Assembly (NCBI GenBank): GCA_963726745.1
Contig: CAVSDR010000003.1
Location: 64,001-128,000, forward strand
Origin: an uncultured Verrucomicrobiae bacterium
GTDB lineage: Bacteria; Verrucomicrobiota; Verrucomicrobiia; Chthoniobacterales; UBA10450
Length of the DNA: 64,000 nucleotides
Direction of reading: 5' to 3'
The notes under the pieces were generated by a model. It did not search any database. It was not told the origin of the DNA and saw only the letters and a list, made by a program, of their open reading frames with translations. Shown piece by piece: positions 14,350-54,743 of the stretch. Within the stretch, counting starts at the first letter, position 1. Each line of letters starts with the position of its first letter. The position numbers and the translations under genes are program-made.

Positions 14350-14847
14350 TTGGCCCACGGACTGCTAAAGCAGGAGAACGTGGAGTTTGAAAGACAAGTG
14401 CAGGCCGCCTGCGGCTATGCCGAGCTCGGGATGTTTCGCGAGTCGCTCGCCGAACTCGATGCCATCCCGGCGCGCTGGCAAAAACGCCCCGAGGTGCTGC
14501 ACCTCCGCCTCCACCACCAGATGCGTCGGCAACGTTGGGGGCACGCCCTGCGGATCAGCCAAATGCTTTGCCGCGCAGCGCCGGACTGCGGCACCGGCTT
14601 CCTCCACGCCGGCTTTTGCCTGCACCGCCTCGGCCGCACCGAGGAGGCAAAAAATCTTCTCGCGATGGGTCCGGTCGCGCTTCTGAAAGACCCGGTCTAC
14701 TACTACAACATGGGCTGCTACGACGCTCTCCTCGGCAACGTGGAGCAAGCCGCGAAGCATTTGAAGATCAGCTTCCGCATGGACTCGAGCTTTCGCGAAA
14801 TCGCGCGGCACGATCCCGACCTCGAAGTGCTCCACGGGATCATCTGA
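14350..14847 (+). CDS. Small TPR protein
   Basis: AACGYAELGM, YYYNMGCYDALLG..A, IARHDPDL TPR-like helices; start codon uncertain. Confidence 0.75.
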   Translation: MAHGLLKQENVEFERQVQAACGYAELGMFRESLAELDAIPARWQKRPEVLHLRLHHQMRRQRWGHALRISQMLCRAAPDCGTGFLHAGFCLHRLGRTEEAKNLLAMGPVALLKDPVYYYNMGCYDALLGNVEQAAKHLKISFRMDSSFREIARHDPDLEVLHGII

Positions 14848-14879
14848 CAAGTTTCGCGGCGCTGTTAGCGTCCGGTGCG

Positions 14880-21000: not shown

Positions 21001-21139
21001 GCCGGAGCGAGCCGGTCCCGGTGTCGTTCGCATTGGTCACCGTGAAAACGGCCGCCCTCGCGGCCTGTTCCCCGAGCACCAAAGTGCTGGCTAAAAATGA
21101 AAGGAGCGACAGGCGGCGAAAGCGAAAGAGCGACATCAT
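18082..21139 (-). CDS. Large secreted protein: two beta-helix (CSLREA/choice-of-anchor Q-like) modules, PT linker, two NIS[ST]R domains; split by a frameshift at about 18870
   Basis: Signal peptide; two copies each of VTNAND.G.GSLR and LG.L..(N/T)GG..RT.A...DSPALDA..DQRG.PR..DLGA.E; ORF 18800-21226 joins ORF 18082-19221 after the PT run. Confidence 0.82.
18881..19070 (-). repeat. Hexamer microsatellite (CCAACG)x28 plus a few CCGACG units encoding a Pro-Thr linker
   Basis: Perfect gcgttg x28 on + at 18901-19068, flanked by gcgtcg units. Confidence 0.95.
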
Positions 21140-21253
21140 AGAAGGGCCGAAGGCCGCACAAGGTGCGTCCCCCAGCCCCTGCTGTCGAGCGCTTGCCGTG
21201 CCACGGGCAAGGGCGCGCGGCGCCAAGCGACACCGCGGCCCCGCCGGGGGGTG

Positions 21254-24200
21254 TTACTCGAGCAGGTAACCTTCCACCAAGGCCACGCCGATGGTGTCAT
21301 CCCGGCCGCGGACGATGGCGGTGTAGTTGCCAGGGACAAACGTCGCCACGATGGCGGATTCGCGGTCGTCGCTCGGCGGCACGGTGCTGGCGATCACTTC
21401 CGCTTCCTGGGTCTCGCGCCAGTTGTCGTTCCGGATGGAGTTCCCATTCGAGTCGAACAATTCCAACGTCGTGTCTTGGAGCGCGCCCGTCACCCCGCGG
21501 GCTGCGAGCGACGGCCCGATCGCGCGGATGATCAGTTTTGCTGGATACATTCCACCAACGATGAAGCCACCGATCATGACGTCGTCCCCCGTCCGGACGA
21601 AGCCGCGGCTGGAGATATTAGCCAGGCGAATGGGTGTGCCAGGTTCGAGATCATAAACCTCCACCAAGCCCACTCCGGTCCCGCCATTTTTCCCCTCCAG
21701 GATGGCGGTGTGCCCGCCGGGGCTCAGCGTGGCTACGATGGCCGACTCGCGGTCGTTCGAGGGCGGAACGGTGGTCTCGATGATCTCGCTCTCCTGGCTG
21801 CTGCGCCAGTCATCGTTCACGATCGCGCCGCCGTCGACGCGCAGGACGGGATCGGCCAGCGCGCCGCTCAACGGGAGCGACGGGCCAATTCCACGGATGA
21901 GCACCTTTTTCGGCTGAGCGCCGGTGACGATGAACCCGGCGATGAGCACGTTAGCGCCCGTTTCCACGCGCATGCGGGTGGCAATGTTGAGTGCCTTGGG
22001 CAGGGGTGGATTGGCGCCGTTCACTTGGAGCGACATGCCTGCGGGCCCGAAACTGACCTGCGCATTGGAGGTCACGCTCGCGAAAGTGCCGTTCGCCGCG
22101 CCGTAGGTGAGAGGGTTAAAAATGTCGCCCGCTTGCGGGACGAAGTCGTTGAGCGTGCGCACGACCAGGCGTCCCCCGAGGTTGGCGGTGCCGCTGATTT
22201 GGAGTTGATCGAATTGCGACGGGCCGGCGCCTCCCACTTCGAGAACCAGAGTGCCGTTTGCGCTTTGGGTGAAATTGCCATCCACGAAGATGCGACCGAG
22301 CGGAGTGCCCGGATCAATAAACGCGCCTTGATTTAGGACGGCTCCGCGCAGGTCGCCAATGCCGCTGATGGTTCCGCCAGTCAGCAAGATTTCGCCAGCG
22401 GCGGGGGCAGCGGCGGAACCGGCGCGCGCAGGTTGAATGGTGCTGCCGTCATTGCCGATAAGAGTGCTGCCATCATTCCCGATAAGCGGCGCGCCATCCG
22501 GACCGAGCAAGGTCGAGCCATCGTTGCCGATCAGGGTGCTGCTATCGAGGCCGATCAAGGTGCCGCCATCCAAGCCGACGAACCCGGTGCCGTTGGGATT
22601 CATCTGCCCGGGAGCCAACTGAAGAGCGCCGCCTCCGATGGTCGCACCGCCAGGCGCTCGGAGAATAGTGTTGGGCCCGAGCGTGGTCAGGCCCCCCAGC
22701 TGATTAAAGGAAACGGCGGGAACTTGGAGTGGCCCCTGCGAGATCTGTGAAGGCCCGGCCTGAATGGAGCCACGGTTTTCAATCACGACGTTTTCCCCAT
22801 TGAAGGAGTCAGCCGTGATCACGCAGGTGCTCTGGTTAATCAGATTTACCGACCGCAAGATCGGGCTTTGTCCGAGGATCAGGAACTTTCCAGCCGGGCC
22901 GTTGATATAGAGGTCGAGGTGGTCGATCTGGCCCGTGGCATGCAGGGTTCCGTAAACGTCCAGCGACGGTTGCACCGTGGCACTGGAGCTGGCGCCTACT
23001 CTCCCATTGACGGTCAGGTGCCGGACTTGAATGCCGAAATCGAGCGAGACGTTGTGGCCGGGTTGGATGATCACGTGATCCCATCGGCCCGGGGCGAGGG
23101 TACTCCCCCAGGTCGAAGGATTGTGCCATGAGCCGCTGCCGGCACTGCGAAAGAGCAAGCCGGGAGGGCTGGCCGCCGCGGCCTCGCTCGCAGCGCTGCC
23201 TTTCCTTGCCGGCTGCGATGCGGCCGACGGCGCGACGATGACGACAATTTGCGGCGATTCCGCTTTCGCTCCATCGGCGCCCGTGGCCACGGCGGTGATC
23301 TTGTGGTATCCAGGCTGGAGCCGGGCCGTGAGGGAGAAGGGCGCGCTCAGATCGGTCGCGACGTTCGCTGCCTCGTCCACCGTCAGCCGGACTTTCGTGC
23401 CGGGCTGCGTATCGTCTAACTCCACGTTAAAGGTGACATCCTGTGCGCCCGTAAATTCCGTGCTGGGCGCGGGCAAGGTGATCAATACCTGCGGGATCCG
23501 GCGCACGGCGGCGTTAAACGCGGTGGCGTCGAAGGTGTGCTCGCCATTCGATCCCACCACGAAATCAAGCGTGTCGCCGCTGGCGAGCGTGAGATCTCGC
23601 GAACGCATCCAGGCTCGGCCAGTCCTCGCGACGGTCGATTCGAAACTTTGGGAGAAGAGCTCCTGGCCATTCTTGATCACGTAAGCGGTCGCACCGTTGC
23701 CGCCGTGGTTGTCGAGATCGACCCAGCGCGCCATGACGCGGTAAACGCCCGTGGCCGGAGCGGTAAAGCGCGCGACGAGGAAGTCATTAGCGCTGCCTGG
23801 GCTGAGATACATTTGCGTTGGCAAAAGCGGCAGGTAATCGCCCGATCCGGTATTGAAGATGATCGGCGTAGTCTTCGTGTTCACGCCGAGGGTTGCCTGG
23901 CCCGACGCGATCCAACCATCGAGGCCGCTGGCCGCATTGACGTGTTGCGCCGGCGTGAACAGGGTGAGCGCGGTGCCCGCTGCCGTCGCGCGAGAACCGT
24001 ACTTCCATTGCGGCACCTTGGCGTTCACCGGGTTTGTTTCGTTCGAATTATTCGGTTTCTCGTGGCTTAATAAATCCCGGCCCGCTCCCCAAAGCACCGG
24101 AATCGGGATGGGATTCGGAGGCTCTGCGCCGAATTCATACGCCCCGATATCGACCGGGTTGGCAGCGGTGCCCGCGCGCGGAGCGCTTCGTTGATCGATG

Positions 24201-25591
24201 GATACTACCGGCACCGTGCCCAGATCGGAGCAGGTCGCCGCGAAGACGCAATTATCACCCATGTTGACCGCCGGAGAATTCGCCTCGAGAGCGTGCGTGG
24301 CGGTCGGCCCACCGTTGGCACCTAAGGAGCCGATTTGCGGTGCGACGTTAATCTTATCGCTCGCGGCCCACGTGATCGTCGTCCCACTGGTATTGCCGAT
24401 CAGGTTATAGCCAAGTGTGATAAACCCGGTCCCGCCGTTTGTCGCTAGATCCGGCCCGTTGCCGTTGCCAGCGATGTTCCCCGCAATGAGCGAATTTTTC
24501 GACCGAACCTCGCTCCCAGTTTCGAAGGTCACCGAGATACCGCCGCCGCCGCCGAAGGAAGTGTTCGTCGAAACCGTTTCGTTGCCGGTGACGGTACAAT
24601 TCAAGAGAAGGACACTGCTTCGGCCTTGATTGAAAAGCCCGCCTCCCCCGCGGCCCGCCTTGTTTCCGCTGATGGTGGAATTTATCATGGTCAGGGACGC
24701 AGATTGGTTACCTGATTGCGCACTCACGATGCCGCCACCTGCAGTGAAGACCGCAGGGTTGGTATTGCTCACCATATTTCCCGAAATGGTGGAGCGACGG
24801 ATGGTCATCACTCCTGCCAGATTTTGCACGCCGCCCGCGCCAAAGACCGCGCTGTTGCCACTAATGGTCGTGTCCTCGATCGTCACGCTGCCCTGATTGT
24901 TGGTCACGCCACCGCCCTCGGAGCTGCTATTCGGACTGGGAGGAACTGCGGTGTTGTCGCTGATCACGGAATTCGAAATCACGACGTTTCCTCGCAGCGT
25001 GTAGAAACCGGCGCCTCCACTCGCCACGTTGCCGGTCACTCTCGAGTTGCTGATCGTCATCGAAGTCTGACCACAGAGAATCCCCCCACCGATATTGGCG
25101 GTGTTGCCGGTGACGATGGAGTTCGTCAGGGTCATCGCCTCGCCGCTGTGATTAATTCCGCCGCCGAAGCTTTCGCTCGCCTTTCCCCCGGTGATGGTCA
25201 CGCCGTTGAGCGTCAACTTGCCGCCGTTGGTGAGGACACGGCTCGCGTTGTTGCCCGAGATCCGGAGTTCTTCTGGGTTCGGATGCGTGATCGTCAGCGC
25301 GCCTCCGGTCGCCTTTTCGACCACGAGCAACTCGCCCGTGGTCAGCGTGATGGTGCAGACCCCGTCCAGGCATCCGGGATCGCTCGCGGGAATGGCGAAA
25401 TTGATCGTGTCATCGGCCGGCGTGGCATTTGCATCCGACACCGCTTGCCGAAGACTTCCGGGTCCACTGTCCGCGGTCTTGGTCACCGTATACGTCGCCG
25501 CCGACGCGCTGGAATGAAACAGCGCACTGAAGAACAGCGCGAAGCCGCCAAAGATGCTCAGAGTGTGAAGTCGTGGCGTCGTTTTTTTCAT
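21254..25591 (-). CDS. Very large secreted protein (about 1445 aa): beta-helix, Ig-like, G8-like, IGNDGST repeats, passenger-like segment, two NI[AS][ST]R domains
   Basis: Signal peptide MKKTT..ASA; VTKTADSGPGSLRQA; LGANGGPTATHAL..SPA; SAGSGSWHNPSTW; ALNIATRMRVETG and LANISSRGFVRTG C-terminal repeats. Confidence 0.85.
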   Translation of the reverse strand: MKKTTPRLHTLSIFGGFALFFSALFHSSASAATYTVTKTADSGPGSLRQAVSDANATPADDTINFAIPASDPGCLDGVCTITLTTGELLVVEKATGGALTITHPNPEELRISGNNASRVLTNGGKLTLNGVTITGGKASESFGGGINHSGEAMTLTNSIVTGNTANIGGGILCGQTSMTISNSRVTGNVASGGAGFYTLRGNVVISNSVISDNTAVPPSPNSSSEGGGVTNNQGSVTIEDTTISGNSAVFGAGGVQNLAGVMTIRRSTISGNMVSNTNPAVFTAGGGIVSAQSGNQSASLTMINSTISGNKAGRGGGGLFNQGRSSVLLLNCTVTGNETVSTNTSFGGGGGISVTFETGSEVRSKNSLIAGNIAGNGNGPDLATNGGTGFITLGYNLIGNTSGTTITWAASDKINVAPQIGSLGANGGPTATHALEANSPAVNMGDNCVFAATCSDLGTVPVVSIDQRSAPRAGTAANPVDIGAYEFGAEPPNPIPIPVLWGAGRDLLSHEKPNNSNETNPVNAKVPQWKYGSRATAAGTALTLFTPAQHVNAASGLDGWIASGQATLGVNTKTTPIIFNTGSGDYLPLLPTQMYLSPGSANDFLVARFTAPATGVYRVMARWVDLDNHGGNGATAYVIKNGQELFSQSFESTVARTGRAWMRSRDLTLASGDTLDFVVGSNGEHTFDATAFNAAVRRIPQVLITLPAPSTEFTGAQDVTFNVELDDTQPGTKVRLTVDEAANVATDLSAPFSLTARLQPGYHKITAVATGADGAKAESPQIVVIVAPSAASQPARKGSAASEAAAASPPGLLFRSAGSGSWHNPSTWGSTLAPGRWDHVIIQPGHNVSLDFGIQVRHLTVNGRVGASSSATVQPSLDVYGTLHATGQIDHLDLYINGPAGKFLILGQSPILRSVNLINQSTCVITADSFNGENVVIENRGSIQAGPSQISQGPLQVPAVSFNQLGGLTTLGPNTILRAPGGATIGGGALQLAPGQMNPNGTGFVGLDGGTLIGLDSSTLIGNDGSTLLGPDGAPLIGNDGSTLIGNDGSTIQPARAGSAAAPAAGEILLTGGTISGIGDLRGAVLNQGAFIDPGTPLGRIFVDGNFTQSANGTLVLEVGGAGPSQFDQLQISGTANLGGRLVVRTLNDFVPQAGDIFNPLTYGAANGTFASVTSNAQVSFGPAGMSLQVNGANPPLPKALNIATRMRVETGANVLIAGFIVTGAQPKKVLIRGIGPSLPLSGALADPVLRVDGGAIVNDDWRSSQESEIIETTVPPSNDRESAIVATLSPGGHTAILEGKNGGTGVGLVEVYDLEPGTPIRLANISSRGFVRTGDDVMIGGFIVGGMYPAKLIIRAIGPSLAARGVTGALQDTTLELFDSNGNSIRNDNWRETQEAEVIASTVPPSDDRESAIVATFVPGNYTAIVRGRDDTIGVALVEGYLLE

Positions 25592-25820
25592 AGGTGTTCT
25601 GATCAAAAATGTCCGGCTCATAGAAGTTCCCTTTGCCCATTACGCCGGAAACGGCGCGAAAAGAGCTCACGCGCCGCGCAAAAAAAATCGTGGGGACGAG
25701 CGCGACCGCGCGAAGGGCGACGCCTTGGTGGCCGCTAAGCATGATTGGACGCCGCCGCGCGCAAGATCCTCGCCCGCGCTGGCGAGGGACAAGCCGCTGT
25801 CTAAAGTCGAGCCCGCTCCC

Positions 25821-31691: not shown

Positions 31692-33122
31692 TCACGGCAA
31701 CCGCTGGCTGAGGTACTCCGCCGCATCCTGCGCGATCATCGGATCGCGATTCGCCAAAACGATCACGGCGTAGCCTTCGTCCCAGAGGATGGTGAGCATT
31801 CCGTTCATCCCCGGTGCGCCGCCGCCGTGCCCGACGAAGCGCCGTCCGTCCTTCATCTGCTCCTCGATCCCGTAGGCATAGCGGTCGCCTTCGCGTGGCG
31901 TCGCCACCCGGCCGGTGACGAGGCGGTCGGTCATGTCCGGCGAGAGGAGTCGGTGGGTGCGCAAGGCGTGCGCAAAACGCATGAGATCGCCCGCGGTCGA
32001 TTCGCCGCCGCCAGCTGACATCCCGCGATAAGACAAAGTCTCTGAGTTGGGCACGAGCGCGCCCGAAGGATCGCGGGTGTAGCCGATCGCAAGATTCTCC
32101 GATGGCTCGGTGATCGGCGTGCTGCCACTGGCCGTCATTCCGGCCGGTCGAAAGACATGCTCGGCGATGTAGTCGTGATAATTCTCGCCCGAGATTTTCT
32201 CGATGATGAGGCCAAGGACGATGAAGCCGGCATTACTGTAGGACCATTGCGCGCCCGGTTCGAAGGCGAGCGGTTGATCGACGAAAAGCGGGAGGTAATC
32301 CCGCAGCTCCCGAAGCCTTTCCCGGGTCTCGAAAAACTTCGGGCCAAAGAAATCGCCCAGCCCGGAAGTGTGCGTGAGCAATTGCTCGATCGTGATCTTC
32401 TGCGCGATTTCGCGGTTCGGATAATCGGGCAGCACGCTCGCCAAAGTGTCGGCAAAACCGAGCTTGCCGGCCTCGACCAGCTGCGCGATCGCGACCGCGG
32501 TAAACATCTTGTTGATCGAGCCGATGCGGAAACGCGTCTCCAGATTCACCGGGATTTTTCGCGCGCGATCCTGCAGGCCAAACGCCTTTTGCCAAAGCGG
32601 CTCGCCCTCCTTCGCGATCAGGGCCACGCCGGAAAACTCGTCCTTTTTAGCCAGCGCCTCGAGCTTCGCCGCCACCTCCTGGCCGAGCTGCGCGACGGGC
32701 TTCCGCTCTGCGCGCGCACCCGCCGGGGCGCTCGCGGGCCCGGCCCGGCGCTGCGCGAGTTTCCCCGCCTCGTCGGCCACGAAGGTGAAGCGCGCGTAGC
32801 TCGGGAAAGTCCCCCGCGTTTTCAGCAGGACGGTCAGCTCGCGCGGAGTCGATTGCTCGACCTCGATCAACTCCCAGCCGCCGTTCGAACGGCGGTCGCC
32901 CAGTTGCCCCGTTGCAATTTCCTCTGGCGAACGACCGCGGCGCGCCTCCGGGCTGTAGCGCGTCTCGGCAAACTGGCGCAACGCGGCGAGGTCGGCGGCG
33001 TTGAAAGCCGCCAGCCAATCGTGGCAGAGCCGGCCCGGCGCGGTCGCCGGCAACGTCACCTTGCCCGAGCCCAGGATCGCGTTCGCGAGCAGGAGGAGCA
33101 GGACGACGGTCAGGCGTTTCAT
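31692..33122 (-). CDS. Secreted serine hydrolase (beta-lactamase family)
   Basis: Signal peptide; GSINK (SxxK), LLTHTSGL, YSN, GHGGGAPG. Confidence 0.9.
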   Translation of the reverse strand: MKRLTVVLLLLLANAILGSGKVTLPATAPGRLCHDWLAAFNAADLAALRQFAETRYSPEARRGRSPEEIATGQLGDRRSNGGWELIEVEQSTPRELTVLLKTRGTFPSYARFTFVADEAGKLAQRRAGPASAPAGARAERKPVAQLGQEVAAKLEALAKKDEFSGVALIAKEGEPLWQKAFGLQDRARKIPVNLETRFRIGSINKMFTAVAIAQLVEAGKLGFADTLASVLPDYPNREIAQKITIEQLLTHTSGLGDFFGPKFFETRERLRELRDYLPLFVDQPLAFEPGAQWSYSNAGFIVLGLIIEKISGENYHDYIAEHVFRPAGMTASGSTPITEPSENLAIGYTRDPSGALVPNSETLSYRGMSAGGGESTAGDLMRFAHALRTHRLLSPDMTDRLVTGRVATPREGDRYAYGIEEQMKDGRRFVGHGGGAPGMNGMLTILWDEGYAVIVLANRDPMIAQDAAEYLSQRLP

Positions 33123-33157
33123 CGGCGCGACATCTTGCCGGCTATTTCTTCGTCTCG

Positions 33158-33898
33158 TTAGGCCGCCATGCTGTGGTCTTCCACCACCCGGCCATCGAAG
33201 ACGTGCACCGTGCGATCGGCGTGCTGCGCGAAACGCGCGTCGTGCGTGACCATGCAAATGGTCGCGCCGTTGCTGTGCAATTCCTTGAGCAAATCCATGA
33301 CCGCCTCGCCGTTGCGCGAGTCGAGGTTTCCGGTCGGTTCATCCGCCAGAAGGATGGCGGGCTTGCCGGCGAGCGCACGGGCCACGGCCACGCGTTGCTG
33401 CTGGCCGCCGGAAAGCTGGCTCGGGAGATGTTTCGCGCGATGCCCCATGCCAACGCGCTCGAGCGCTTCCTGCACGTGCGTTTTGCGTTCGCTCGCCCCC
33501 ATCCCGCGATAGGTCAGCGGCAGCTCCACGTTCTCGTAGACCGTCAGGTCGCCGATGAGGTTGAAGCTTTGGAAGATGAAACCGATCTCGCGGTTCCGGA
33601 TGCGTGCGCGTTCCGGGAACGAGAGGTTCGCCACCTCCGTGCCCTTGAGCGTGTAGCTCCCGCCGCTGGGCGTATCGAGCAGGCCGAGAATCGAGAGCAG
33701 GGTGGATTTCCCGCAGCCCGAGGGTCCGGCGATGGAGACGTATTCGCCTTCGCGGATGTCGAGATGGATGCCGGAAAGCGCATGCGTCTCGACCTCGTCG
33801 GTCAGGAAGACTTTGGTTACGTCTTCGAGTTTGATCAGGGTGCCGTTGGCGCCGTTTTTGCGCTTCGGTGGTTCGATGGTGGTTTCAGTGTTGGTCAT
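33158..33898 (-). CDS. ABC transporter ATP-binding protein
   Basis: VETHAL, GPSGCGKS, LSGGQQQR, LADEPTGNLD, VTHD. Confidence 0.93.
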   Translation of the reverse strand: MTNTETTIEPPKRKNGANGTLIKLEDVTKVFLTDEVETHALSGIHLDIREGEYVSIAGPSGCGKSTLLSILGLLDTPSGGSYTLKGTEVANLSFPERARIRNREIGFIFQSFNLIGDLTVYENVELPLTYRGMGASERKTHVQEALERVGMGHRAKHLPSQLSGGQQQRVAVARALAGKPAILLADEPTGNLDSRNGEAVMDLLKELHSNGATICMVTHDARFAQHADRTVHVFDGRVVEDHSMAA

Positions 33899-40145: not shown

Positions 40146-40391
40146 ATGAAAAAGCTTCTCAGCACCCCCGCTCGGAAGAAATCTGCAGGCTTCATCGCCT
40201 TCGGTGCTCTTGCCACAGCCTTTTGGTTTACCAGCACTCCGGCTAGTCTCGCGCAGGACGCGGATTGCACGCTCTGCCATAAACGGACGCAGACAATTAC
40301 GACGGTCTGCGGCAGCTTGGACAATCGGCGCCATCTCGACCACGGCGATACGATGGGCCCGTGCGCCGTTACGCCAGTGACGAACCAGTAA
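40146..40391 (+). CDS. Small secreted Cys4/His3 peptide (CxxCH..C..HxxHGD..GxC), copy 1
   Basis: Signal peptide then DCTLCHKRTQTITTVCGSLDNRRHLDHGDTMGPC; conserved paralog at 44340. Confidence 0.85.
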   Translation: MKKLLSTPARKKSAGFIAFGALATAFWFTSTPASLAQDADCTLCHKRTQTITTVCGSLDNRRHLDHGDTMGPCAVTPVTNQ

Positions 40392-40440
40392 AGCAATCGC
40401 CAGGGCCTTCCAAGCCCAATGGCGGGCTCGGGCAACGCCT

Positions 40441-42240
40441 GTGCAGATGACGATTGCCCCCAAGCGCGCGGCCCAGCTCGTCTCGGCGACTCTGCTTGTC
40501 GCCGGCGTCGTCGTGCTCCAGACGCTGATCGGTGGGCGCGGTCTCTTGTTTTCGCTACCGGGCTTTGTCCTGATCGGTTTGGCCGCATTGGTCGCGGTAG
40601 TGGCAGCCAACCGTTCCCGGATTCTTTCGAATCCGGCGGCACTGAGCGTGTCGGCTATTTTCTTCGGCTACATCCTGGCGCGGGCGCTGGCTTCGCCGGC
40701 CTACTTCGCGCGGCCGGACTTGTTTTCCGTTGTCGCCGCGCTGGTGGTTTACGGTTTGGTCGCGACGGTTCTGACATCCTCCTCGGTGCGCGCGCTTATT
40801 TTCGCGGCGCTGATTCTTTTTGCCGTCGCGCATGTGCTCGTCGGCATCATGCAATTCACCCGCGCGGATAACTTCATGCCCATTCCCTTTCTTCAGCGGG
40901 TGGATTATGGCCAGCGCGCGAGCGGTCTCTACATCTGCCCAAATCACCTCGCAGGGTTGTTGGAAGTCCTCGGGATCTTCGGCCTTAGCCTCACCTGTTG
41001 GAGCCGATGGCGCGTCTGGCAAAAGCTGGTCGTCGCCTACGCCACTGGTGCCTGCTACGTGGGTCTGGCACTCACTGGCAGCCGCGGAGGTTATTTGAGC
41101 GCGGTTACCAGCCTGGTCGTTTTTGGGATCCTTAGCCTGGTTGTTATTCGCGCGGCCAGGCCGGGTGACTGGAAACGCTTTGCCGTCATTGGATTGCTCG
41201 CGCTCACTCTGCTGGTCACAGCGGCAGGTCTCCTGATCGGACGGAATTGGTTCCTAGGCGAACGCGCGGGGAGACTCACCACCCCAGACCAGGTGCGACC
41301 CGACCTTTGGCATGCCGCTGTGCAACAGTGGAAGCTGGCCCCGGTATTCGGCACCGGAAGCGGCACATACCGGTTCTACGGTCGGGAGTTTCGCACGGAA
41401 AGGATGCAGAACGACCCGATCGACGTGCACAACGATTACCTTCATCTCCTGTGCGAGTATGGCCTTATCGGGGGCGCCGGCTTCTTGCTCTTTTTCGCTC
41501 TCCATACGCGGCACGCTTGGCGAAGCTTGCGCTGGATGGCGGAGCGCAGCCCGCCTGCCTTTGGAGCGATGTCGAGCAACCGTCTCGGTCTGCTGCTTGG
41601 AGCGCTCGCCGCCACCGCCGCGTATGTGGTCCACTCCGCGGTCGATTTTAACCTTCACATTCCCGCCAACGCGATCCTCATGGCCTTGGTTTTCGGCATT
41701 CTCGCGAACCCCGGGATCGCTGCCGAGAAAAGCGAGCCGCGGGCGTTTTCTCTGATGGTCCCCAGGTGGGCCATCGGCGTGTTGGCTGTGGCCCTCATCG
41801 CTCAGAGCCTTCGCTTTTACCGGGGCGAATACTACACGGAGACGGCGCGGGCGGCATTACGAGATGAGAATCCGCAGGAGGCTTTCCAGCTCACAGAAAA
41901 AGCGCGGATCTATGAGCAGCGGAATCCGGAACTTTTCTTCTATCAAGGCCGCGCTGCGCTGGCCCTCGCGCACGCGGCCAAAAGCGAGAGTGAAAAGAAA
42001 GAACGCTACCAGCAGGCGGTCGCAGCTTTCCAAATGGCGCGACACCTTGCTCCACTGGATGGAACTTATGCTCTCAACTTGGCTTACACGTTCGACGAGA
42101 TGGGCTTGTTCCCGCAGGCGGAACAAATGTTCACTGAAGCTCGGGAGAGAGACCCGCGCTCGATGGCGGTCGCGGAACTCTACCGCGCCCACCAACGCCA
42201 GCAGGCTGCCAGCGAATCGGATGCCGGCTCGGCCTTGTGA
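40441..42240 (+). CDS. O-antigen ligase/O-oligosaccharyltransferase (Wzy_C) membrane protein with C-terminal TPR, copy 1
   Basis: About 12 TM; PNHLAGLLE, TGSRGG, P.FGTGSGTY, HNDYLHLL.EYG, HSAVDFNLHIPAN; TPR tail. Confidence 0.88.
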   Translation: MQMTIAPKRAAQLVSATLLVAGVVVLQTLIGGRGLLFSLPGFVLIGLAALVAVVAANRSRILSNPAALSVSAIFFGYILARALASPAYFARPDLFSVVAALVVYGLVATVLTSSSVRALIFAALILFAVAHVLVGIMQFTRADNFMPIPFLQRVDYGQRASGLYICPNHLAGLLEVLGIFGLSLTCWSRWRVWQKLVVAYATGACYVGLALTGSRGGYLSAVTSLVVFGILSLVVIRAARPGDWKRFAVIGLLALTLLVTAAGLLIGRNWFLGERAGRLTTPDQVRPDLWHAAVQQWKLAPVFGTGSGTYRFYGREFRTERMQNDPIDVHNDYLHLLCEYGLIGGAGFLLFFALHTRHAWRSLRWMAERSPPAFGAMSSNRLGLLLGALAATAAYVVHSAVDFNLHIPANAILMALVFGILANPGIAAEKSEPRAFSLMVPRWAIGVLAVALIAQSLRFYRGEYYTETARAALRDENPQEAFQLTEKARIYEQRNPELFFYQGRAALALAHAAKSESEKKERYQQAVAAFQMARHLAPLDGTYALNLAYTFDEMGLFPQAEQMFTEARERDPRSMAVAELYRAHQRQQAASESDAGSAL

Positions 42241-42470
42241 GTTTCTGATAACGCCGCAATCTCTGTTAAGAATATCCTCGCTGCCAGAACGAGCATCTCG
42301 TCGGAAACCTTTACAATAATCGCGCTGGCGCAAGCTTTCCGGAAAGTATTTCTTTATGCTAAACATTTAGCTTCGAGGCACTTACGCTTATCATAGCTTT
42401 TATGGCATCTTGCGTGCTATCACTTCCAAACTGTTCATATAACCTCAGCTCCACCCTCACCCCACTTCGC

Positions 42471-43133
42471 ATGAATTCGTTGTCCAAATTCCGCCATTCC
42501 CTTCTCGCCGTTGTCCTCGCTACCGCTTCCAGCACGACCTTGTTCGCCCAAAATTTGGTGCAAGATCCCGGCTTCGAAGCAAGTGCAGATGGCACCGGGG
42601 CCCATCCATTCTCCGCTTCTTGGACGGTGAATGACCCCAGCGCCTTTTCTAACGTAGGGGGCGATAGTGCCTTTGCTCACAGTGGGAACAACTACGCGAA
42701 TTTGGGCTACGATCCGAGCAAAGCCGGCCCGATGCCCCCAGCATTCGCTAGCCTTTCCCAGACCTTGGCGACCACGATTGGGACCACCTACACTCTTTCC
42801 TTCTGGCTGGCTAACAACACCAGCTTGCCGACGAATTTCTTCCAAGCGTTCTTCAACGGGGTAATGGTTTCCTCGACCATCACCAGCCCTCCATTCCCTT
42901 CGAACGGGACCTACCAGCAGATCGTCCTGACCGGGCTGGTGGCGACTTCGACCTCAACCTCGCTCCAGTTCCGCTATCGCAACGACGATGATTTTTGGAA
43001 CCTCGACGATGTCAGCGTAACCGGTCCGGCCGCTGCTCCGGAAGGTGGGGCAACTCTCTGGATCCTCCTGCCGGTCTTCGGGGGAGTCTGCCTGCTGCAT
43101 CGCCGCCTACGTGTGGCCCGCCAGGTGGGATAG
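42471..43133 (+). CDS. PEP-CTERM/VPDSG-like sorted surface protein with CBM4/DUF642-like domain
   Basis: Signal peptide, QNLVQDPGFE, LSQTLAT..G.TYTLSFWL, LDDVSV; tail APEGGATL + TM + HRRLR. Confidence 0.78.
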   Translation: MNSLSKFRHSLLAVVLATASSTTLFAQNLVQDPGFEASADGTGAHPFSASWTVNDPSAFSNVGGDSAFAHSGNNYANLGYDPSKAGPMPPAFASLSQTLATTIGTTYTLSFWLANNTSLPTNFFQAFFNGVMVSSTITSPPFPSNGTYQQIVLTGLVATSTSTSLQFRYRNDDDFWNLDDVSVTGPAAAPEGGATLWILLPVFGGVCLLHRRLRVARQVG

Positions 43134-43375
43134 GCTACTCTTAAAAGAGCTTGCGGTTTTACGCGGGCGCGAAGGCGGGAATCTCCGGAATCCCGAATTC
43201 GCGCCCGCCAGTTTTTCGGTCGAGGCTAGCCGCTTTAGGTGCTGAGGGTGCATTATTAGGTCGTAAAAGGGCTCATCTCCATGGCGCAAAATCTGCAATC
43301 GAAGTCAGGTAGACCAACTCGATTGACACTTTTACGCATTGTGCGAACATTCGCGCCGGTCCACCCCCACAGTCT

Positions 43376-44212
43376 ATGCATCGCTCACCCTTTCTCTGCG
43401 CCCTCCTCTGTTGCGCCTTAGGCGCCATGATCGCACTTGCCGCGCCAGTTCACGCGGATCCTCTTTTCGACAACGGCACTCCCGATCATGCAGATGGATT
43501 CGAGATGACGGTGTGGATCCAAGCGGACGATTTTACCCTGAATGAGGGCGGTCGGCTGAGTGGAGTGAAATTCTGGACCGGAGAACTCGTCGGCTATTTC
43601 CAGGGCACAGTCACGTGGCAGATCTACGCGAACAGCCCCCAAAACAAGCCTGGTACCTTGCTTTACAGCGGCTCCTCTCCGACCTCGCATGCGGCCACCG
43701 GGCTCACGGTCTACGGACCTTTCAAGGAATATGTATCCGACTTCGAGGTTCCTTCCATCGATCTTCCAGCTGGCACGTATTGGCTGGGCTTGCACAATGG
43801 CCCCTTGAGCAATGTCGGATCGCAAAACGTCTTTTGGGTTAGCACCCTGGGCGGTCGCGGTAATCCCGGACAGGAACAGCCCCTAGTCCCGCCATTACAA
43901 TACTGGGACAGCCACCTGTGTCCGAATTGCACCCGCCAACTCCCACCCGATCTGGCTTTCCAACTCAGCGGTGTTAGCGCTCCTCGAATCGTCTCCATGG
44001 CTGTCACCAACCGAATCCCTCGTCTTGGCTTCACGACCTCGGCTGGGCAGAGCTACCGTGTCGAATTCAAAAGCAATTTGAGTGATCCCAGCTGGACAAC
44101 TCTCTCGGGTTCGGAATCTGTTGCTGGCACTGGCGGTGTGCTCGAAATCACGGATCCCGGAGCAACCGCCGGTCCCGGAGCGAAGCGCTTTTACCGTGTG
44201 GTGCTTCTTTGA
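43376..44212 (+). CDS. Secreted protein with Verrucomicrobia-type C-terminal domain
   Basis: Signal peptide; QADDFTL, LPAGTYWLGL; C-terminus GQSYRVEFKSNL..W...GTGG...ITDP...RFYRV. Confidence 0.75.
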   Translation: MHRSPFLCALLCCALGAMIALAAPVHADPLFDNGTPDHADGFEMTVWIQADDFTLNEGGRLSGVKFWTGELVGYFQGTVTWQIYANSPQNKPGTLLYSGSSPTSHAATGLTVYGPFKEYVSDFEVPSIDLPAGTYWLGLHNGPLSNVGSQNVFWVSTLGGRGNPGQEQPLVPPLQYWDSHLCPNCTRQLPPDLAFQLSGVSAPRIVSMAVTNRIPRLGFTTSAGQSYRVEFKSNLSDPSWTTLSGSESVAGTGGVLEITDPGATAGPGAKRFYRVVLL

Positions 44213-44339
44213 ACGCGAATTTCGCCGCGCGCATTCCTCTCTCTGCAACGCTTTTACGGTTTTTCTGAATTAAACTGCAACTTTACCTTGTCTCTCAGCT
44301 CATTTTTGGCTTAAAAAGGCTCCTGCAATCACACTCCCC

Positions 44340-44603
44340 ATGAAGACCCTCTTCCGCTTCCTCCCTTCTGCGTCTCGTTCGGCTTCCACGTCCGCCATTT
44401 TGCTCGCCGCCACTGTCCTCGGCACGGGCTTCTGGGTGGCTACTAGCAGCACCGCACTGGCAGCCGATTGCGTTCTCTGTCACAAACGCACGACCCAGAT
44501 CACCGTCGTTTGCAGCAGTTTGGATTACCGCCGCCACGTGGATCACGGGGATACCACCGGTATGTGTCCGGCCAGCCGTTCCGAGACCGAAAGCCGCTTC
44601 TAG
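44340..44603 (+). CDS. Small secreted Cys4/His3 peptide, copy 2
   Basis: Signal peptide ending ALA then DCVLCHKRTTQITVVCSSLDYRRHVDHGDTTGMC. Confidence 0.85.
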   Translation: MKTLFRFLPSASRSASTSAILLAATVLGTGFWVATSSTALAADCVLCHKRTTQITVVCSSLDYRRHVDHGDTTGMCPASRSETESRF

Positions 44604-44679
44604 CACTCGTTTTCGAGGTCCCGGGCAAACTTTTGCGCCCGACCGATCGCTCCTCTGAGAATCTCTGATACGTCAGCGG

Positions 44680-46470
44680 GTGGCTGAGCGAAGGTCTTAC
44701 TGGTCTCTGGGGGCCGGACTCTCCGTCTTTCTAACGGCGGTTGCGCTTGCTTCGATGCAGGTGCTCCTGTCAGAGCGAAGCCTGTTTCCCGTTCTTCCGG
44801 GCTACGCTTTGCTCGCCCTCGGCGGCGGCTTTGCCTTCGCGTTTCGCCGTGACCTCTCCACCGGCGATGCTGCATGCCTGGGCACCACCCTCCTTTTTGG
44901 CGGCTACATCATCGCTCGGGCGCTAACTTCCCCGGATGGCTACGCCGCGCGGATCGATCTCTACCTGGCGGTCGCAGCGATCTCGTTTTACGGACTGATA
45001 ACCTCCGTTCTTCGCTCACCCGCCAGCCGGATGGGGTTGATCGGCCTCCTTCTCGGCTTCGCCTCCGTCCACGTGCTTGTGGGCGTGGTCCAGGCAGGCT
45101 TGGGGAAAAATTACGCGATGCTTTTCTCCTGGCTGGAGCACGTGGCACCGGACGAGCGCGCAACCGGCTTCTTTGTCAATCCTGACCATCTCGCCGGATT
45201 GCTGGAGGTGCTGGGAATTTTCGGGCTATGCCTTGCCTGCTGGAGCCGACGCGCAGGTTGGCTGCGGGTTCTCATCGCATATCTCGCAGGGCTTTGTTAC
45301 GTGGGGCTTTCCCTAACCGGGAGCCGCGGAGGCTACTTAAGCGCGGCCATTGGCTTGATCTTGCTGGCTAGTTTTAGCTTGGTCGTCTTGTGGCGGGCCG
45401 GAGCTGGGACGGCGCTGCGCCTCGCCGGCGGGATGCTTCTTTTAATCAGCATCCTGGGCGCCGGCGGGTGGTTCTTCGTCCGGGCACACGTCCCGTTGCG
45501 CGAGGTCAGCATCGAGGTCTTCACGACGGATGAAGGACGATTGGGGCTTTGGCAAGCGGCCCTGGACCAATGGAAGCTGCAGCCGCTGGTCGGCACTGGC
45601 AGCGGCACCTACCGCTTCTACGGCCGCGAATTCCGGGCGCCGAAAATGCAGATGGATCCCGGCGATGCCCACAATGACTACCTGCAACTCCTCGCCGAAT
45701 ACGGCCTCGTCGGCGCGGCCATCTTTCTTCTTTTTCTCGCGAGCCATCTTCGCGCCGGCTGGCGCAGTTTCCGGATGCTCGGCCCGCAACGCATCGCCAG
45801 CGGCGGGCACCTCTTGAGCGATCGCCTCGCGCTCAACCTCGGCGCGCTCTGCGCGCTCGCGACCTGCGCCGCCCACTCCGTGGTCGACTACAACATGCAT
45901 CTCCCGGCGAATGCCCTCCTCTTGGTCTTCGCCACCGCGCTCCTCGCTGATTCCGGCCTGAACCTCCCCGCGGCCGCAAGGGCCCCGCGTTTTCGTCTTG
46001 CCTTCACTCTTATCGCCGCCCTTGGCGCCGTGGTTTTGTTCGTGCAATCAGCCCGCCTCTATCCGGGCGAACACTTCACGGAAAAGGCGCGCCTTGCCCT
46101 CCGCGACGAAAACCCTGCCGGCGCCATCGAGCAGGCCGAGGAGGCGTTGCGGTATGAGCAGAAAAATCCCCGGACGTACTTCATCCTCGGACGCGCCTTG
46201 TCTGCGCTCGGCAATCAGCCAGAGCAGGCAGCGAATCGGTCGGCCCTCTATGCCAAGGCGCTGTCTGCTTTCGCCCGGGCCGAAGCGCTCGCTCCGCTCG
46301 ATGGCAGCTACCCCTTGGAGATTGCCTTTCTACACGATGAATCGGGCGACTTCGCCGCAGCTGAGCCGTTCTATCAACGGGCCCTGGCCCGCGACCCGCA
46401 CTCGATCTCGATGCGAAATCTATACCAGTCCCACCTCGAGCGCTGGCACGGCGAACCTTCCCCTCGTTAG
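44680..46470 (+). CDS. O-antigen ligase/O-oligosaccharyltransferase (Wzy_C) + TPR, copy 2
   Basis: [63 protein letters not shown]; colinear with copy 1. Confidence 0.88.
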
Positions 46471-51555: not shown

Positions 51556-52155
51556 ATGCCGCGCCCGCTCCTGCTCTTCGCTCCCGGCGCCGGCGCCCCC
51601 TCCTCGCATCCGTGGATGGAGCACTGGGCGGAATTGCTCGCGCGTCTCGGCCCGGTCCGGCGTTTCGATTACGACTACCTGCGCGCGGGCTCGCGCCGCC
51701 CGGATCGTCCGCCGCAGCTCCTGGCGGCGCATCGCGCTGCCCTCGCCGAAGCGCGCGCCGGGCACGACGGCCCAGTGGTGCTCGCCGGCAAAAGCATGGG
51801 CGGCCGCATCGGCTGCCACCTCGCGCTCGAGGAAACAGTCAGCGCGCTCATCTGCTTCGGCTATCCGCTTTGCGGCGGTGGTGATCCCGCGAAGCTGCGC
51901 GACCAGGTCCTGCGCGACCTGCGCACGCCGGTGCTTTTCCTCCAGGGCACACGCGACCCGCTCTGCCCGCTCGCGCTGCTCGCGGAAGTGCGGGCGCAAA
52001 TGACCGCGCCTAACGAACTCCACGAGGTCGAGGGCGGCGATCATTCCCTCCTCGTGCGGAAGCGCGACCTGGCCGCGCGCGCGGAGACGCAAGCCACGGT
52101 CGACGCGCGTATCCTCCAGGCGATCGAGCAATTCCTCGCCCGCCACCTCGCATGA
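51556..52155 (+). CDS. Alpha/beta hydrolase (KANL3/Tex30-like)
   Basis: GAGA, GKSMGGR nucleophile elbow, GYPL, QGTRD, GGDHS. Confidence 0.88.
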   Translation: MPRPLLLFAPGAGAPSSHPWMEHWAELLARLGPVRRFDYDYLRAGSRRPDRPPQLLAAHRAALAEARAGHDGPVVLAGKSMGGRIGCHLALEETVSALICFGYPLCGGGDPAKLRDQVLRDLRTPVLFLQGTRDPLCPLALLAEVRAQMTAPNELHEVEGGDHSLLVRKRDLAARAETQATVDARILQAIEQFLARHLA

Positions 52156-54743
52156 AGAAGCAGCTGGTTAAAGTCGACGGGCACGAATTCCAAGTCTCGA
52201 ATCTCGACAAGGTTTTCTTCCCTGGCAGCGGCTTCACCAAGGGCGAGACGCTCGCCTTCTACACGGAAATAGCCGACACCATCCTGCCGCACCTGCGCGA
52301 CCGGCCGCTGACGATGAAACGTTTCCCGGAGGGCGTCGCGGGCGAACCGTTCTACGAGAAGAACGCGCCCAAGCACACGCCCGCGTGGGTCACGACCTTC
52401 GCGGTGCCGCGGAGCGAAGGCGGCGACGACATCAACTACATCCTCTGCAACGACCGGGCCACGCTTACCTGGGTGACGAACCTGGGCGACATCGAGAAGC
52501 ACGTCCTGCTCGCAAAAGTGCCGCAGACCAATGTCCCCACCTCGATGGTCTTCGACCTCGACCCGGGCGCGCCGGCGGGGATGCTCGCATGCGCCGAGGT
52601 CGCGTTGCATTTGCGGACGCTTTTCGCGGCCTGGGGGCTCGAAGCCTTTGCAAAAGTTTCCGGCTCAAAAGGCATCCACTTGAGCGTGCCGCTGAACGGC
52701 GACGCGCCCTACGAAGTGACGCAGCCTTTCGCCAAGACGGTCGCGGAATTGGTCGCGCACCAACTGCCCAAAGGTGTCGTCTCCGACATGGCCAAGAGCC
52801 TGCGCACCGGGAAAGTGTTGATCGATTGGAGCCAAAATTCCGACTTCAAGACCACCGTGGCGGTCTATGCCATGCGGGCCAAGGGCGACGAGCCGTTCAT
52901 CTCCATGCCGGTCGAGTGGGCCGAACTCGAACGCGCGGTGAAAAAGCAAGACGCCAGCAAACTCACCTTCACCCCTAACGAGTCGATCAAGCGCATCGCC
53001 AAACTTGGCGACCTCTTCGCCCCGGTGCTGAAGCTGCAGCAGGAATTACCCAGCGCTTTCACCAAGGCCCTGGCCGCTGGGCCCGCGCCCAAACTCAGCC
53101 GCTGGCCGCGCAACGACAAGAAAGGCCGCCGCAGTTCCCGGGTCGCCGAAAAACCGCCGAAAGGCGATCACAGCCTGCAAACCTATGCGGCCAAGCGCGA
53201 CCACTCGCGCACTCCGGAACCGGCCGCGAAGCCAGCGGCAAAGAAAGGGAAGCGCACCGGCCCGCATCGTTTCGTCATTCAGAAACATCAAGCCAGCCAT
53301 CTGCATTACGATTGGCGGCTCGAGATGGAGGGCGTGCTCCGCTCCTGGGCCGTGCCGAAAGGGCCGCCCTTTGAATTAAAGGAAACGCGCCTGGCGATGC
53401 ACGTGGAAGATCATCCGTTGGAATATGAGCACTTCGAGGGAACGATCCCGCCGGGAAACTACGGCGCGGGCACCGTCATGGTTTGGGATTATGGCGTCTA
53501 CGAAGACCTGACCGAGAATGCCGCGGCCGCTTTTCACGCGGGCAAAATGCACCTGGTGATGCAAGGCGAGAAGCTCCAAGGCGAATGGATCCTGGTGAAG
53601 GACAAGCGCGAGCCGGAAAGCAATCGCTGGCTCCTGATCAAAGCCGGGAAGGCGATGAAAGCGCTGTCTAAAAAGGCGGACGACCAATCGGCTCTCACTG
53701 GGCGCTCGATGGCGGAGATTGCGAAAGAGAACGACGCCCAGTGGCACAGCAACCGCCCGGCAGCCTCGGCGAAAACGATCGCGCCGAAACGCGCCAAAGT
53801 GCCGGCTAAATTCTTCGAGCCGATGAAGTGCAAGGCGGTGACGCAACTGCCGGAGGAAGGGAACTGGACCTACGAAGTAAAGTTCGACGGCTACCGCTGC
53901 CAGGCGGTGAAGAATGGCGCCAAAGTCCAGCTCCTCTCGCGGAACAAAAAAAGCCTCAACGCTCGTTTTCCGAACGTGGTCGAGGCGCTGAAAAAGCTGC
54001 CTAACGACTGCACGCTCGATGGCGAAATCGTGGCGCTCGATGAGCAGGGCAAGCCCTCCTTCCAGCTCCTGCAGAACAACCTCTCCCGCCCGCTCGCGGT
54101 CTACTTCTACGCCTTCGACTTGTTGAGTATCGACGGCCGGGAGCTGGTCGATGCCCCGATCGAGGAGCGCCGGGCAGAGCTCGATCAGCTTCCGCTGCAG
54201 GAACCGCTCCGCCGCTCGGCCTTGCTCGACGCGCCGGCCGATCAAGTGCTCGACGCGGTGCGCTCGTTAGGCCTCGAGGGTGTGGTCGGGAAACGAGACG
54301 GCTCGACCTACGAGGCCGGGGAACGCTCGGGCGCGTGGATCAAGCAGCGGACCGGCGCGGAGCAGGAGTTCGTCATTGGCGGTTACACGCCAGGGACGCG
54401 CGGCTTCGACGCGCTTCTCGTAGGCGTTTATGAAAAGCGGAAACTGCAGTTCGTCGCCCGGGTGAAGGATGGCTTCGTCCCGCGGCTGCGCGAGGAAATC
54501 TTCGCGAAGTTCAAAGGCCTGGAAACGGACGAATGTCCCTTCACGAATCTCCCGGAGAAGAAAGGCGCGCGCCGCGGCGAGGCTCTCACCGCCGAGAAGA
54601 TGAAGGAGTGTCGCTGGCTCAAGCCAAAGCTGATCATGCGCGTGGCCTTCGTGAATTGGACCGATGCCGGCAATCTCCGGCACCCGACTTACGTCGCCCT
54701 CGTGACCGACAAGAAGCCCGCCGCCGTGGTCCGCGAGACCTAG
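52152..54743 (+). CDS. ligD: NHEJ DNA ligase D (POL-PE-LIG order)
   Basis: POL: SNLDKVFFP, FDLDPG, SGSKGIH; PE: FVIQKH.ASHLHYDWRLE, SWAVPKGP; LIG: EVKFDGYR, EGVVGK, LRHP. Confidence 0.95.
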   Translation: MKKQLVKVDGHEFQVSNLDKVFFPGSGFTKGETLAFYTEIADTILPHLRDRPLTMKRFPEGVAGEPFYEKNAPKHTPAWVTTFAVPRSEGGDDINYILCNDRATLTWVTNLGDIEKHVLLAKVPQTNVPTSMVFDLDPGAPAGMLACAEVALHLRTLFAAWGLEAFAKVSGSKGIHLSVPLNGDAPYEVTQPFAKTVAELVAHQLPKGVVSDMAKSLRTGKVLIDWSQNSDFKTTVAVYAMRAKGDEPFISMPVEWAELERAVKKQDASKLTFTPNESIKRIAKLGDLFAPVLKLQQELPSAFTKALAAGPAPKLSRWPRNDKKGRRSSRVAEKPPKGDHSLQTYAAKRDHSRTPEPAAKPAAKKGKRTGPHRFVIQKHQASHLHYDWRLEMEGVLRSWAVPKGPPFELKETRLAMHVEDHPLEYEHFEGTIPPGNYGAGTVMVWDYGVYEDLTENAAAAFHAGKMHLVMQGEKLQGEWILVKDKREPESNRWLLIKAGKAMKALSKKADDQSALTGRSMAEIAKENDAQWHSNRPAASAKTIAPKRAKVPAKFFEPMKCKAVTQLPEEGNWTYEVKFDGYRCQAVKNGAKVQLLSRNKKSLNARFPNVVEALKKLPNDCTLDGEIVALDEQGKPSFQLLQNNLSRPLAVYFYAFDLLSIDGRELVDAPIEERRAELDQLPLQEPLRRSALLDAPADQVLDAVRSLGLEGVVGKRDGSTYEAGERSGAWIKQRTGAEQEFVIGGYTPGTRGFDALLVGVYEKRKLQFVARVKDGFVPRLREEIFAKFKGLETDECPFTNLPEKKGARRGEALTAEKMKECRWLKPKLIMRVAFVNWTDAGNLRHPTYVALVTDKKPAAVVRET

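Follow-up and report, generated by a model that had tools for sequence, protein, structure and literature searches.

The window analysed here, a 64,000-nucleotide stretch of contig CAVSDR010000003.1 (positions 64,001 to 128,000) from an uncultured Verrucomicrobiae bacterium of the order Chthoniobacterales, contains two gene pairs in tandem, each consisting of a gene for a small secreted-type Cys/His peptide and, directly downstream, a gene for an enzyme of about 600 residues with a Wzy_C domain and C-terminal tetratricopeptide repeats (TPR). Our results suggest that these pairs are probably substrate-dedicated O-oligosaccharyltransferase (OTase) modules belonging to a new, TPR-bearing class. 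What is observed is the linkage and order of the genes, a conserved Ser/Thr in the peptide tail, a conserved Arg/Arg/His set in the enzymes and the co-divergence of tail types with enzyme clades. In the mechanism that we propose, the peptide would be exported through Sec and folded by disulfides, as family knowledge suggests for both steps; the enzyme would grip its Cys/His domain through the TPR, with periplasmic loops around His330 contacting the tail, as in a complex model; and a lipid-linked glycan, presumably on an undecaprenyl diphosphate donor, would be transferred to Thr76 of peptide 1 or Ser79 of peptide 2. Both window enzymes would have been duplicated from an enzyme whose gene lies between that of a tagged secreted protein and a beta-barrel/Wzc/short-OPX export cluster.

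Two linked gene pairs and their relatives in the genus

Peptide 1 (81 residues, 40146..40391, + strand) has a predicted signal peptide (residues 1-36), a four-Cys/three-His beta-beta-alpha domain (residues 41-73, at 40266..40364; C41, C44, C55, C73, H45, H63 and H66, with two predicted disulfides and predicted docking to the TPR) and the tail AVTPVTNQ. Within this C-terminal tag (40365..40388), the proposed acceptor Thr76 (40371-40373) stands three residues after the last Cys (hereafter Cys+3) and sixth from the end, Asn80 being penultimate. Enzyme 1 (599 residues, Wzy_C and C-terminal TPR, with conserved R215, R286 and H330, the latter at 41428-41430) follows after a gap of 49 nt, at 40441..42240 on the same strand. 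The second pair, also on the + strand, is formed by peptide 2 (87 residues, 44340..44603, Cys/His domain at 44469-44567), whose extended tail has Ser79 (44574-44576) at Cys+3 without the terminal Asn register, and, 76 nt further, by enzyme 2 (596 residues, Wzy_C and TPR, 44680..46470), in which the Arg/Arg/His set is kept (H331 at 45670-45672). A first-pass annotation of this DNA had described the module as present twice in the same orientation, and all four open reading frames (ORFs) lie exactly where it placed them; the divergence that it reported for both members is equally real, the enzymes being 45% identical and the peptides 57% identical over 58 residues. It had noted that the signal peptides differ; these regions are homologous, with L22, F26, W27 and A36 invariant in 9/9.

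The association is general in the genus. Among 34 genomes, 25 encode the domain, 25 the enzyme and 24 both, and 47 distinct enzyme loci were obtained (50 rows, with fragments merged by hand). In all 45 of the loci that have upstream DNA on the contig, a gene ending in the domain lies directly upstream of the enzyme, and the pairing is therefore not due to chance. The tandem of two pairs, 4-5.5 kb apart, recurs in five other Chthoniobacterales genomes of the genus (G007, G028, G031, G032 and G033). Both peptides of the original description are real; the system is wider than the two of them, as the partner can be a secreted protein of 230-430 residues.

The genes carrying the domain were sorted into classes A to E. 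Class A, to which peptide 1 belongs, are small peptides ending C-x-x-T-x-x-x-N-x-stop, upstream of enzyme-1 orthologues, and class B, with peptide 2, are small peptides with C-x-x-S/T and a variable tail, upstream of enzyme-2 orthologues. Class C are helical secreted proteins of 230 residues with a C-terminal, often His-less domain and the class A tail, located upstream of a third paralogue of the enzyme. Class D are FecR fusions that have the class A tail and lack an adjacent enzyme, a CHASE2 cyclase gene being next in three loci listed. In class E, the domain forms the C-terminal module of large secreted proteins, in many cases preceded by a Thr-Pro linker and again without an enzyme, and two such proteins occur in the genome of the window.

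Some individual loci deserve mention. One class B peptide has lost its enzyme (L222:2878-3162), and at another locus a class B and a class A peptide stand in tandem upstream of a single frameshifted enzyme (L168:1323-1993). The cyclases downstream of FecR proteins with the class A tail are CHASE2 adenylate/guanylate cyclases (L050:2744-6166, L051, L053). The two large secreted proteins of the own genome (contigs C3 and C4) are capped by the domain after long Thr-Pro linkers (L002:5438-5548, L003:4513-4638), and both cap reading frames shift within the repeat, by assembly error or slippage. Like caps are present on FG-GAP, Kelch and Ig-like proteins, and the domain may act as an independent binding module at C-termini.

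The tail Ser/Thr within and beyond the genus

Considering all loci fetched, a Ser or Thr stands at Cys+3 in 61/61 enzyme-adjacent domain copies (59 by script and two counted from an extra terminal Cys) and in 9/25 non-adjacent ones (seven of class D and two others). The 16 non-adjacent copies without it belong to class E or are class E fragments, and five further copies were unassignable. As the relatives are not independent, no statistical test is given with these counts. Two unpublished genomes (G001 and G030) supply four adjacent, three non-adjacent and three unassigned copies, and the counts without them are 57/57 and 8/22; both also enter the tallies of 34 genomes and 47 loci, alignment A2 and one row of the enzyme tree, and no conclusion depends on them. 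The comparison supports the earlier proposal that the tail Ser/Thr is a candidate acceptor site.

In metagenome proteins, taken without genomic context, Ser/Thr at Cys+3 was found in 35/39 small signal-bearing peptides and 27/38 other short ones, in 9/22 long fusions and in 50/228 repeats of a broad two-Cys family (see below). The number of residues that follow it is five in classes A and C and ranges from 1 to 41 in class B. Two other interpretations of the tail were tried. The Asn was discounted as acceptor, being absent from class B, and a general sorting tag in the own genome was rejected, with 7 occurrences seen versus 9.2 expected in a set of 3489 crude ORFs (peptide 1 was missed by the filter).

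Outside the genus, the enzyme family is present in 90/121 genomes sampled from the order. In nine other genomes of family f1, the upstream gene ends with a Ser/Thr sixth from the end (9/9) and a penultimate Asn (8/9), and one of these upstream proteins is unrelated, ice-binding-like and ends VSPSTNP. In family f6, the upstream gene encodes a helical carrier without the Cys/His domain in 12/12 cases, ending [ST]xxxNx in 10/12, an ending also found in 13 unlinked carrier paralogues. In family f8, a secreted protein with the tag lies downstream in 3/7 loci, one of them, an unrelated enzyme-adjacent protein of 430 residues, ending VTPVTNQ, identical to peptide 1. Therefore, the tail outlasts the domain, since the tag ends unrelated or domain-less neighbour proteins in f1, f6 and f8; the Cys/His core is dispensable in other families, and it is the tail that remains associated with the enzyme.

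Several copies of the helical carrier exist in family f6 (L136-L147, L151-L153), most of the unlinked ones ending [VIL]T-x-x-x-N-x, and a second group of f6 carriers ends [IV][IV]SPER, with three of four located upstream of a barrel-like gene. Two genomes of family f5 have an unlinked carrier ending TTPVN.

Enzyme family, conserved residues and phylogeny

Both window enzymes match Wzy_C (PF04932) at 65-67 bits (cut-off 31.7), and TPR matches in both fall below the Pfam cut-offs. The best-scoring named models are TIGR03097 (22-33 bits, cut-off 188) and TIGR00947 (54-70 bits, cut-off 366), neither of which reaches its cut-off, and the TfpM model NF058641 gives 19-21 bits for a cut-off of 600 with enzymes of 596-608 residues including the TPR. 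The PglL_A and Wzy_C_2 domains gave no match at E<=0.1 in the enzymes. Sequence searches of the PDB returned TPR-type matches or nothing among the matches listed (in one search the best 60 of 251), the membrane domain having no match there, and an Atlas search retrieved unnamed Wzy_C/TPR clusters only. The enzyme fold predicted from a single sequence had a mean pLDDT of 54.6, too poor for a structure search.

The hydropathy profile of enzyme 1 has 12 peaks and, with one more helix placed near residues 195-212, about 13 membrane helices would be present; in this topology the conserved loops, R215, R286, H330 and the TPR would face the periplasm. Across 91 enzymes, R215 and R286 are each conserved in 91/91 and H330 in 90/91. 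H330 falls inside the stretch weakly matched to positions 245-306 of the TfpM profile and may correspond to H286 of TfpM.

In the phylogeny (FastTree, midpoint root, 91 full-length rows with fragments left out), both window enzymes branch within a clade of 21 rows (support 100), sister to the operon enzymes of the family. Enzyme 2 belongs to a subclade of 11 rows (support 100) whose partners all lack the terminal register, so that the tail type co-diverges with the enzyme clade. This subclade has changed G31, G32, R34, F37, Y156, C166, N168, R275 and R474, each of which 80-100% of the other f1/f6 enzymes retain; residues of predicted periplasmic loops are among them.

The Cys/His domain and its wider family

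The Cys/His core is predicted to fold into two strands plus one helix, with a pLDDT of 87-90 for residues 41-70. The peptides match no Pfam or NCBIfam family, and fold searches gave no Foldseek match at E<=0.001, a best VIA Z of 3.0 and no usable Atlas match, which does not imply a new fold. The core belongs to a widespread unnamed repeat, VTICH...HL.HGD..G.C, present in up to 19 copies per large secreted protein, and no Pfam family describes this repeat in the 39 proteins scanned. The window peptides have the same core motif and are unlike the repeat in their second Cys pair, their Ser/Thr tail and their single copy. The broad two-Cys form is common in large secreted proteins (P0009, P0018, P0020, P0029, P0037 and others).

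Classes A, B and E retain both H-x-x-H-G-D and the CxxCH motif, the latter present in both window peptides. In class C, most copies have lost the first Cys and many lack all three His, with the tail kept. The lineage of the window adds two Cys to the repeat, and these are gained and lost together: 98 copies have both, 232 neither, three the partner only and none the first only. Because the first Cys never occurs without the partner Cys further on, a second disulfide is favoured over a haem site, the count being confounded by lineage, and the candidate haem c site in the peptide is weakened by this covariation.

A predicted complex between enzyme 1 and its peptide

For enzyme 1 and mature peptide 1, a complex was predicted with a score of 0.72 (runs of 0.72, 0.01 and 0.78), and the best control scored 0.01. 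This mark is reached by 116/157 solved pairs and 2/215 mismatched ones, a calibration that is rough here because our own alignments were used. At least 19% of contacts are shared between runs, and the partner pLDDT is at least 53. In the model, the interface would consist of the TPR (residues 467-586) and the enzyme loops 30-37, 150-155, 165-169 and 322-330, including H330; the L-D-H-G segment of the peptide contacts TPR residues 473-549, P72-V75 contacts residues 324-325, and the whole tail lies in the interface. Of the 27 residues altered in the enzyme-2 subclade, which had been listed before the model was returned, 6/27 lie in the interface, versus 17/171 of the conserved positions (p=0.03, post hoc). 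No like complex was found in the PDB among the matches of the sequence searches listed. As a model, the complex supports binding; it is no demonstration of binding or of catalysis. The pairing of each enzyme with a cognate peptide and the role of the TPR as docking site, both suggested by the first-pass annotation, gain support from the comparison and from this single model of enzyme 1 with peptide 1.

A third paralogue and the linkage to export genes

A third paralogous module of the same genome (C6:860192-867045; L001:5193-12043) consists of a carrier, the enzyme, a BBP2_2 barrel, Wzc and an OPX protein of 193 residues. The carrier (231 residues) has a His-less domain and the same VTPVTNQ tail as peptide 1, and no glycosyltransferase or flippase was seen nearby. 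The first-pass annotation had stated that no lipopolysaccharide (LPS) or O-antigen genes are adjacent. This stands for both window pairs, with no LPS or polysaccharide genes beside them or among the 17 other long ORFs of the window scanned, and the third paralogue, in contrast, adjoins polysaccharide-export genes; Wzc and OPX genes are thus absent beside the window enzymes and present beside the third paralogue and the enzymes of distant relatives.

In a sample of the phylum, 18/120 genomes besides the own one match the enzyme, two of the 18 being within the order. Of 15 distant loci fetched, 12 run barrel-Wzc-OPX-enzyme, 11 of them with a listed carrier gene in front, and the enzyme and export genes are thus linked across the Verrucomicrobiota. 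The distant carriers show one invariant Thr near a variable C-terminus in 11/11 aligned, with Thr-Pro in 10, and the 11 have no detectable relation to the class C carrier. Two further distant loci (L208 and L209) display a run of enzyme, FecR and CHASE2 cyclase that echoes class D; the FecR-CHASE2 association possibly reflects glycosylation-linked signalling.

Could these gene arrangements have a common logic? Tentatively, Verrucomicrobiota might end Wzc-controlled polysaccharide chains on the short C-terminal Thr tag of a secreted carrier and export the protein-linked polymer via the short-OPX/beta-barrel route, so that a Gram-negative capsule would be anchored covalently to protein. The window would then hold two daughter modules, with the carrier shrunk to a 45-residue disulfide peptide read by the TPR, in effect a portable glycosylation tag. 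If the ancestral copy does load such chains onto protein, capsules would be attached in a way other than by the lectin, lipid and LPS routes given in the accessible part of PMC12220298.

Alternative explanations

Several points weigh against the dedicated OTase interpretation. The similarity to the TfpM model is weak, far below its cut-off as given above; the relatives do not count as independent cases, and adjacent genes diverge in step simply by being linked; the own genome shows no excess of the tag, as counted from crude gene calls; and no tagged neighbour was found in families f5 (0/6), f7 (0/3) and f12 (0/4). The window Ser/Thr is sixth from the end or internal, versus the last residue in TfpO/TfpM. 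One of the three complex runs scored 0.01, and the model output gives no indication of which tail residue meets H330. The glycan donor, the transfer, the site and the glycopeptide are drawn from family knowledge rather than observed. The ancestral enzyme sits with Wzc, OPX and barrel genes, where Wzy_C proteins are commonly polymerases, and three Chthoniobacterales loci run enzyme-barrel-Wzc-OPX without a carrier. The first-pass annotation had held that enzymes grouped in polysaccharide loci would speak against its proposal, and this is partly what was found, as throughout the phylum the ancestral paralogue is part of a beta-barrel/Wzc/OPX locus. Because of this location, the enzymes may still be Wzy-type polymerases or chain-release enzymes of the Wzc/short-OPX/beta-barrel pathway, with the tagged proteins bound to them as unglycosylated activators, plugs or adaptors, which is the strongest of the alternatives and which we consider rather unlikely. 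The linkage of enzyme, barrel, Wzc and OPX in the own genome and in the 12/15 loci from outside the order fits such a role, as do the three export clusters without a carrier gene, and the complex model suits a bound regulator equally well. In addition, prmJ, a Wzy_C protein of the 'O-antigen ligase family', is treated as the Wzy polymerase of an exopolysaccharide cluster in the accessible part of PMC11340318. Against a polymerase, the window copies were duplicated with the peptide only and without export genes, strict conservation applies to a residue with a hydroxyl group (Ser/Thr) at the spacing known from OTases, and four further Wzy_C matches exist in the genome, of which two exceed the cut-off and at least two lie inside glycosyltransferase clusters.

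We consider it very improbable that the peptide acts as a small binding protein for a metal (His3/Asp) or for c-type haem (CxxCH), the adjacent enzyme being merely co-regulated with it. The conserved CxxCH and H-x-x-H-G-D motifs, three cytochrome c assembly matches in the genome and the many repetitions of the His motif in large proteins of the broad family are in its favour; the strict co-occurrence of the first Cys with its partner points instead to a disulfide (with the same confounding by lineage), many class C partners keep the tail without the first Cys and the three His, and other families keep the tail without the domain. The peptide may have a side role in metal binding. We find it about equally improbable that the tail serves the beta-barrel or the Wzc/OPX machine as a recognition or export signal and is not an enzyme substrate. 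Three [IV][IV]SPER carrier paralogues do lie directly upstream of a beta-barrel gene (one Pfam-confirmed), with no enzyme in the fetched stretch, but the window pairs keep the Ser/Thr without a nearby barrel, and in the model the tail lies on the enzyme. Least credible is that the enzymes serve as additional WaaL O-antigen ligases with lipid A-core as their target, the peptides being unrelated passengers. Myxococcus WaaL is reportedly equipped with a C-terminal TPR. Wzy_C is also common to WaaL, according to the accessible part of PMC12645811. Nevertheless, no LPS genes lie beside any of the three paralogues, the 45/45 linkage and the tail would be left unexplained, and hhalign gave no match between the enzyme and Escherichia coli WaaL, which is weak evidence because WaaL proteins are diverse.

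Neighbouring genes in the window

Two secreted-type proteins are encoded between the pairs. The first (42402..43133, +) has a VPDSG/PEP-CTERM-like tail and is syntenic in relatives; it does not match the family model, which one orthologue matches below the cut-off. The second (43376..44212, +) ends RFYRVVLL, belongs to no known family and has one or two syntenic copies in relatives. These conserved proteins could be further substrates, and the genome has four exosortases. At most, the neighbouring secreted-type genes hint at a surface role of the putative glycopeptides. The block of two pairs is flanked by threonine synthase and YifB genes, and a promoter and terminator scan gave nothing useful, with counts within about two standard deviations of shuffles.

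Elsewhere in the window, a 1455-residue ORF (21254-25621, -) with no Pfam match at E<=1e-8 lies directly upstream of an 808-residue beta-helix protein (18800-21226, -). A LigD in Pol-PE-ligase order (52152-54743, +) and two ORFs with beta-lactamase-family domains (14535-16025, +, and 31692-33257, -) are ordinary.

Comparison with known systems

According to the accessible part of PMC12645811, dedicated OTases generally adjoin their substrates, a TfpO tag is described, PglL_A and Wzy_C_2 define PglL/PglS, and three substrate-specific O-OTase classes are named, all acting on pilin-like proteins in Proteobacteria. We found no description of a TPR-bearing peptide/OTase system in the literature, as covered incompletely through listings and abstract openings, nor of such an enzyme for the phylum Verrucomicrobiota in the literature searched. 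If our interpretation is true, a TPR-bearing O-OTase class would be added, in which the acceptors are not pilins, the tag is defined and seven residues long, and the site can be predicted. Pairs of OTase and tag are working parts of bioconjugate glycoengineering, and the natural acceptor here would have 45 residues.

Among the systems to which the modules can be compared, the composite short-OPX/beta-barrel export of EpsY/EpsX and VpsN/VpsM (bioRxiv 2022.04.04.486985) resembles the cluster of the third paralogue with its BBP2_2 barrel, Wzc and 193-residue OPX protein; in contrast, the accessible part of that source mentions no tagged carrier or 'O-antigen ligase', and the window copies lie outside an export cluster. 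TIGR03097, from exosortase A systems, is by name a predicted protein-glycosylating ligase, and the genome has the exosortases noted above; unlike in those systems, the window partner is not a PEP-CTERM protein. TIGR00947 is the IctB family. The PglS/PglL enzymes are alike in size (520-600 residues) and in an internal acceptor site, and PglS also has one dedicated neighbouring substrate with flanking Cys; the window enzymes differ in lacking PglL_A and Wzy_C_2, in having the TPR and in a sequon located after the disulfides.

TfpM attaches a glycan to the Thr of FLPANCRGT, located three residues beyond the Cys closing a disulfide loop, needs H286 and has its pilin gene directly upstream, as given in the accessible part of PMC9829042. 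The window enzymes, with about 600 residues and the TPR, are larger than TfpM/TfpO (420-470 residues), and their partners are not type IV pilins, having no Pfam or NCBIfam match and a different predicted fold. Nevertheless, the window pairs share with TfpM, TfpO and PilO a Wzy_C enzyme encoded directly 3' of the acceptor gene (the acceptor role being the one proposed here), a Ser/Thr three residues after the loop-closing Cys near the C-terminus and a conserved His in Wzy_C, possibly in an equivalent position.

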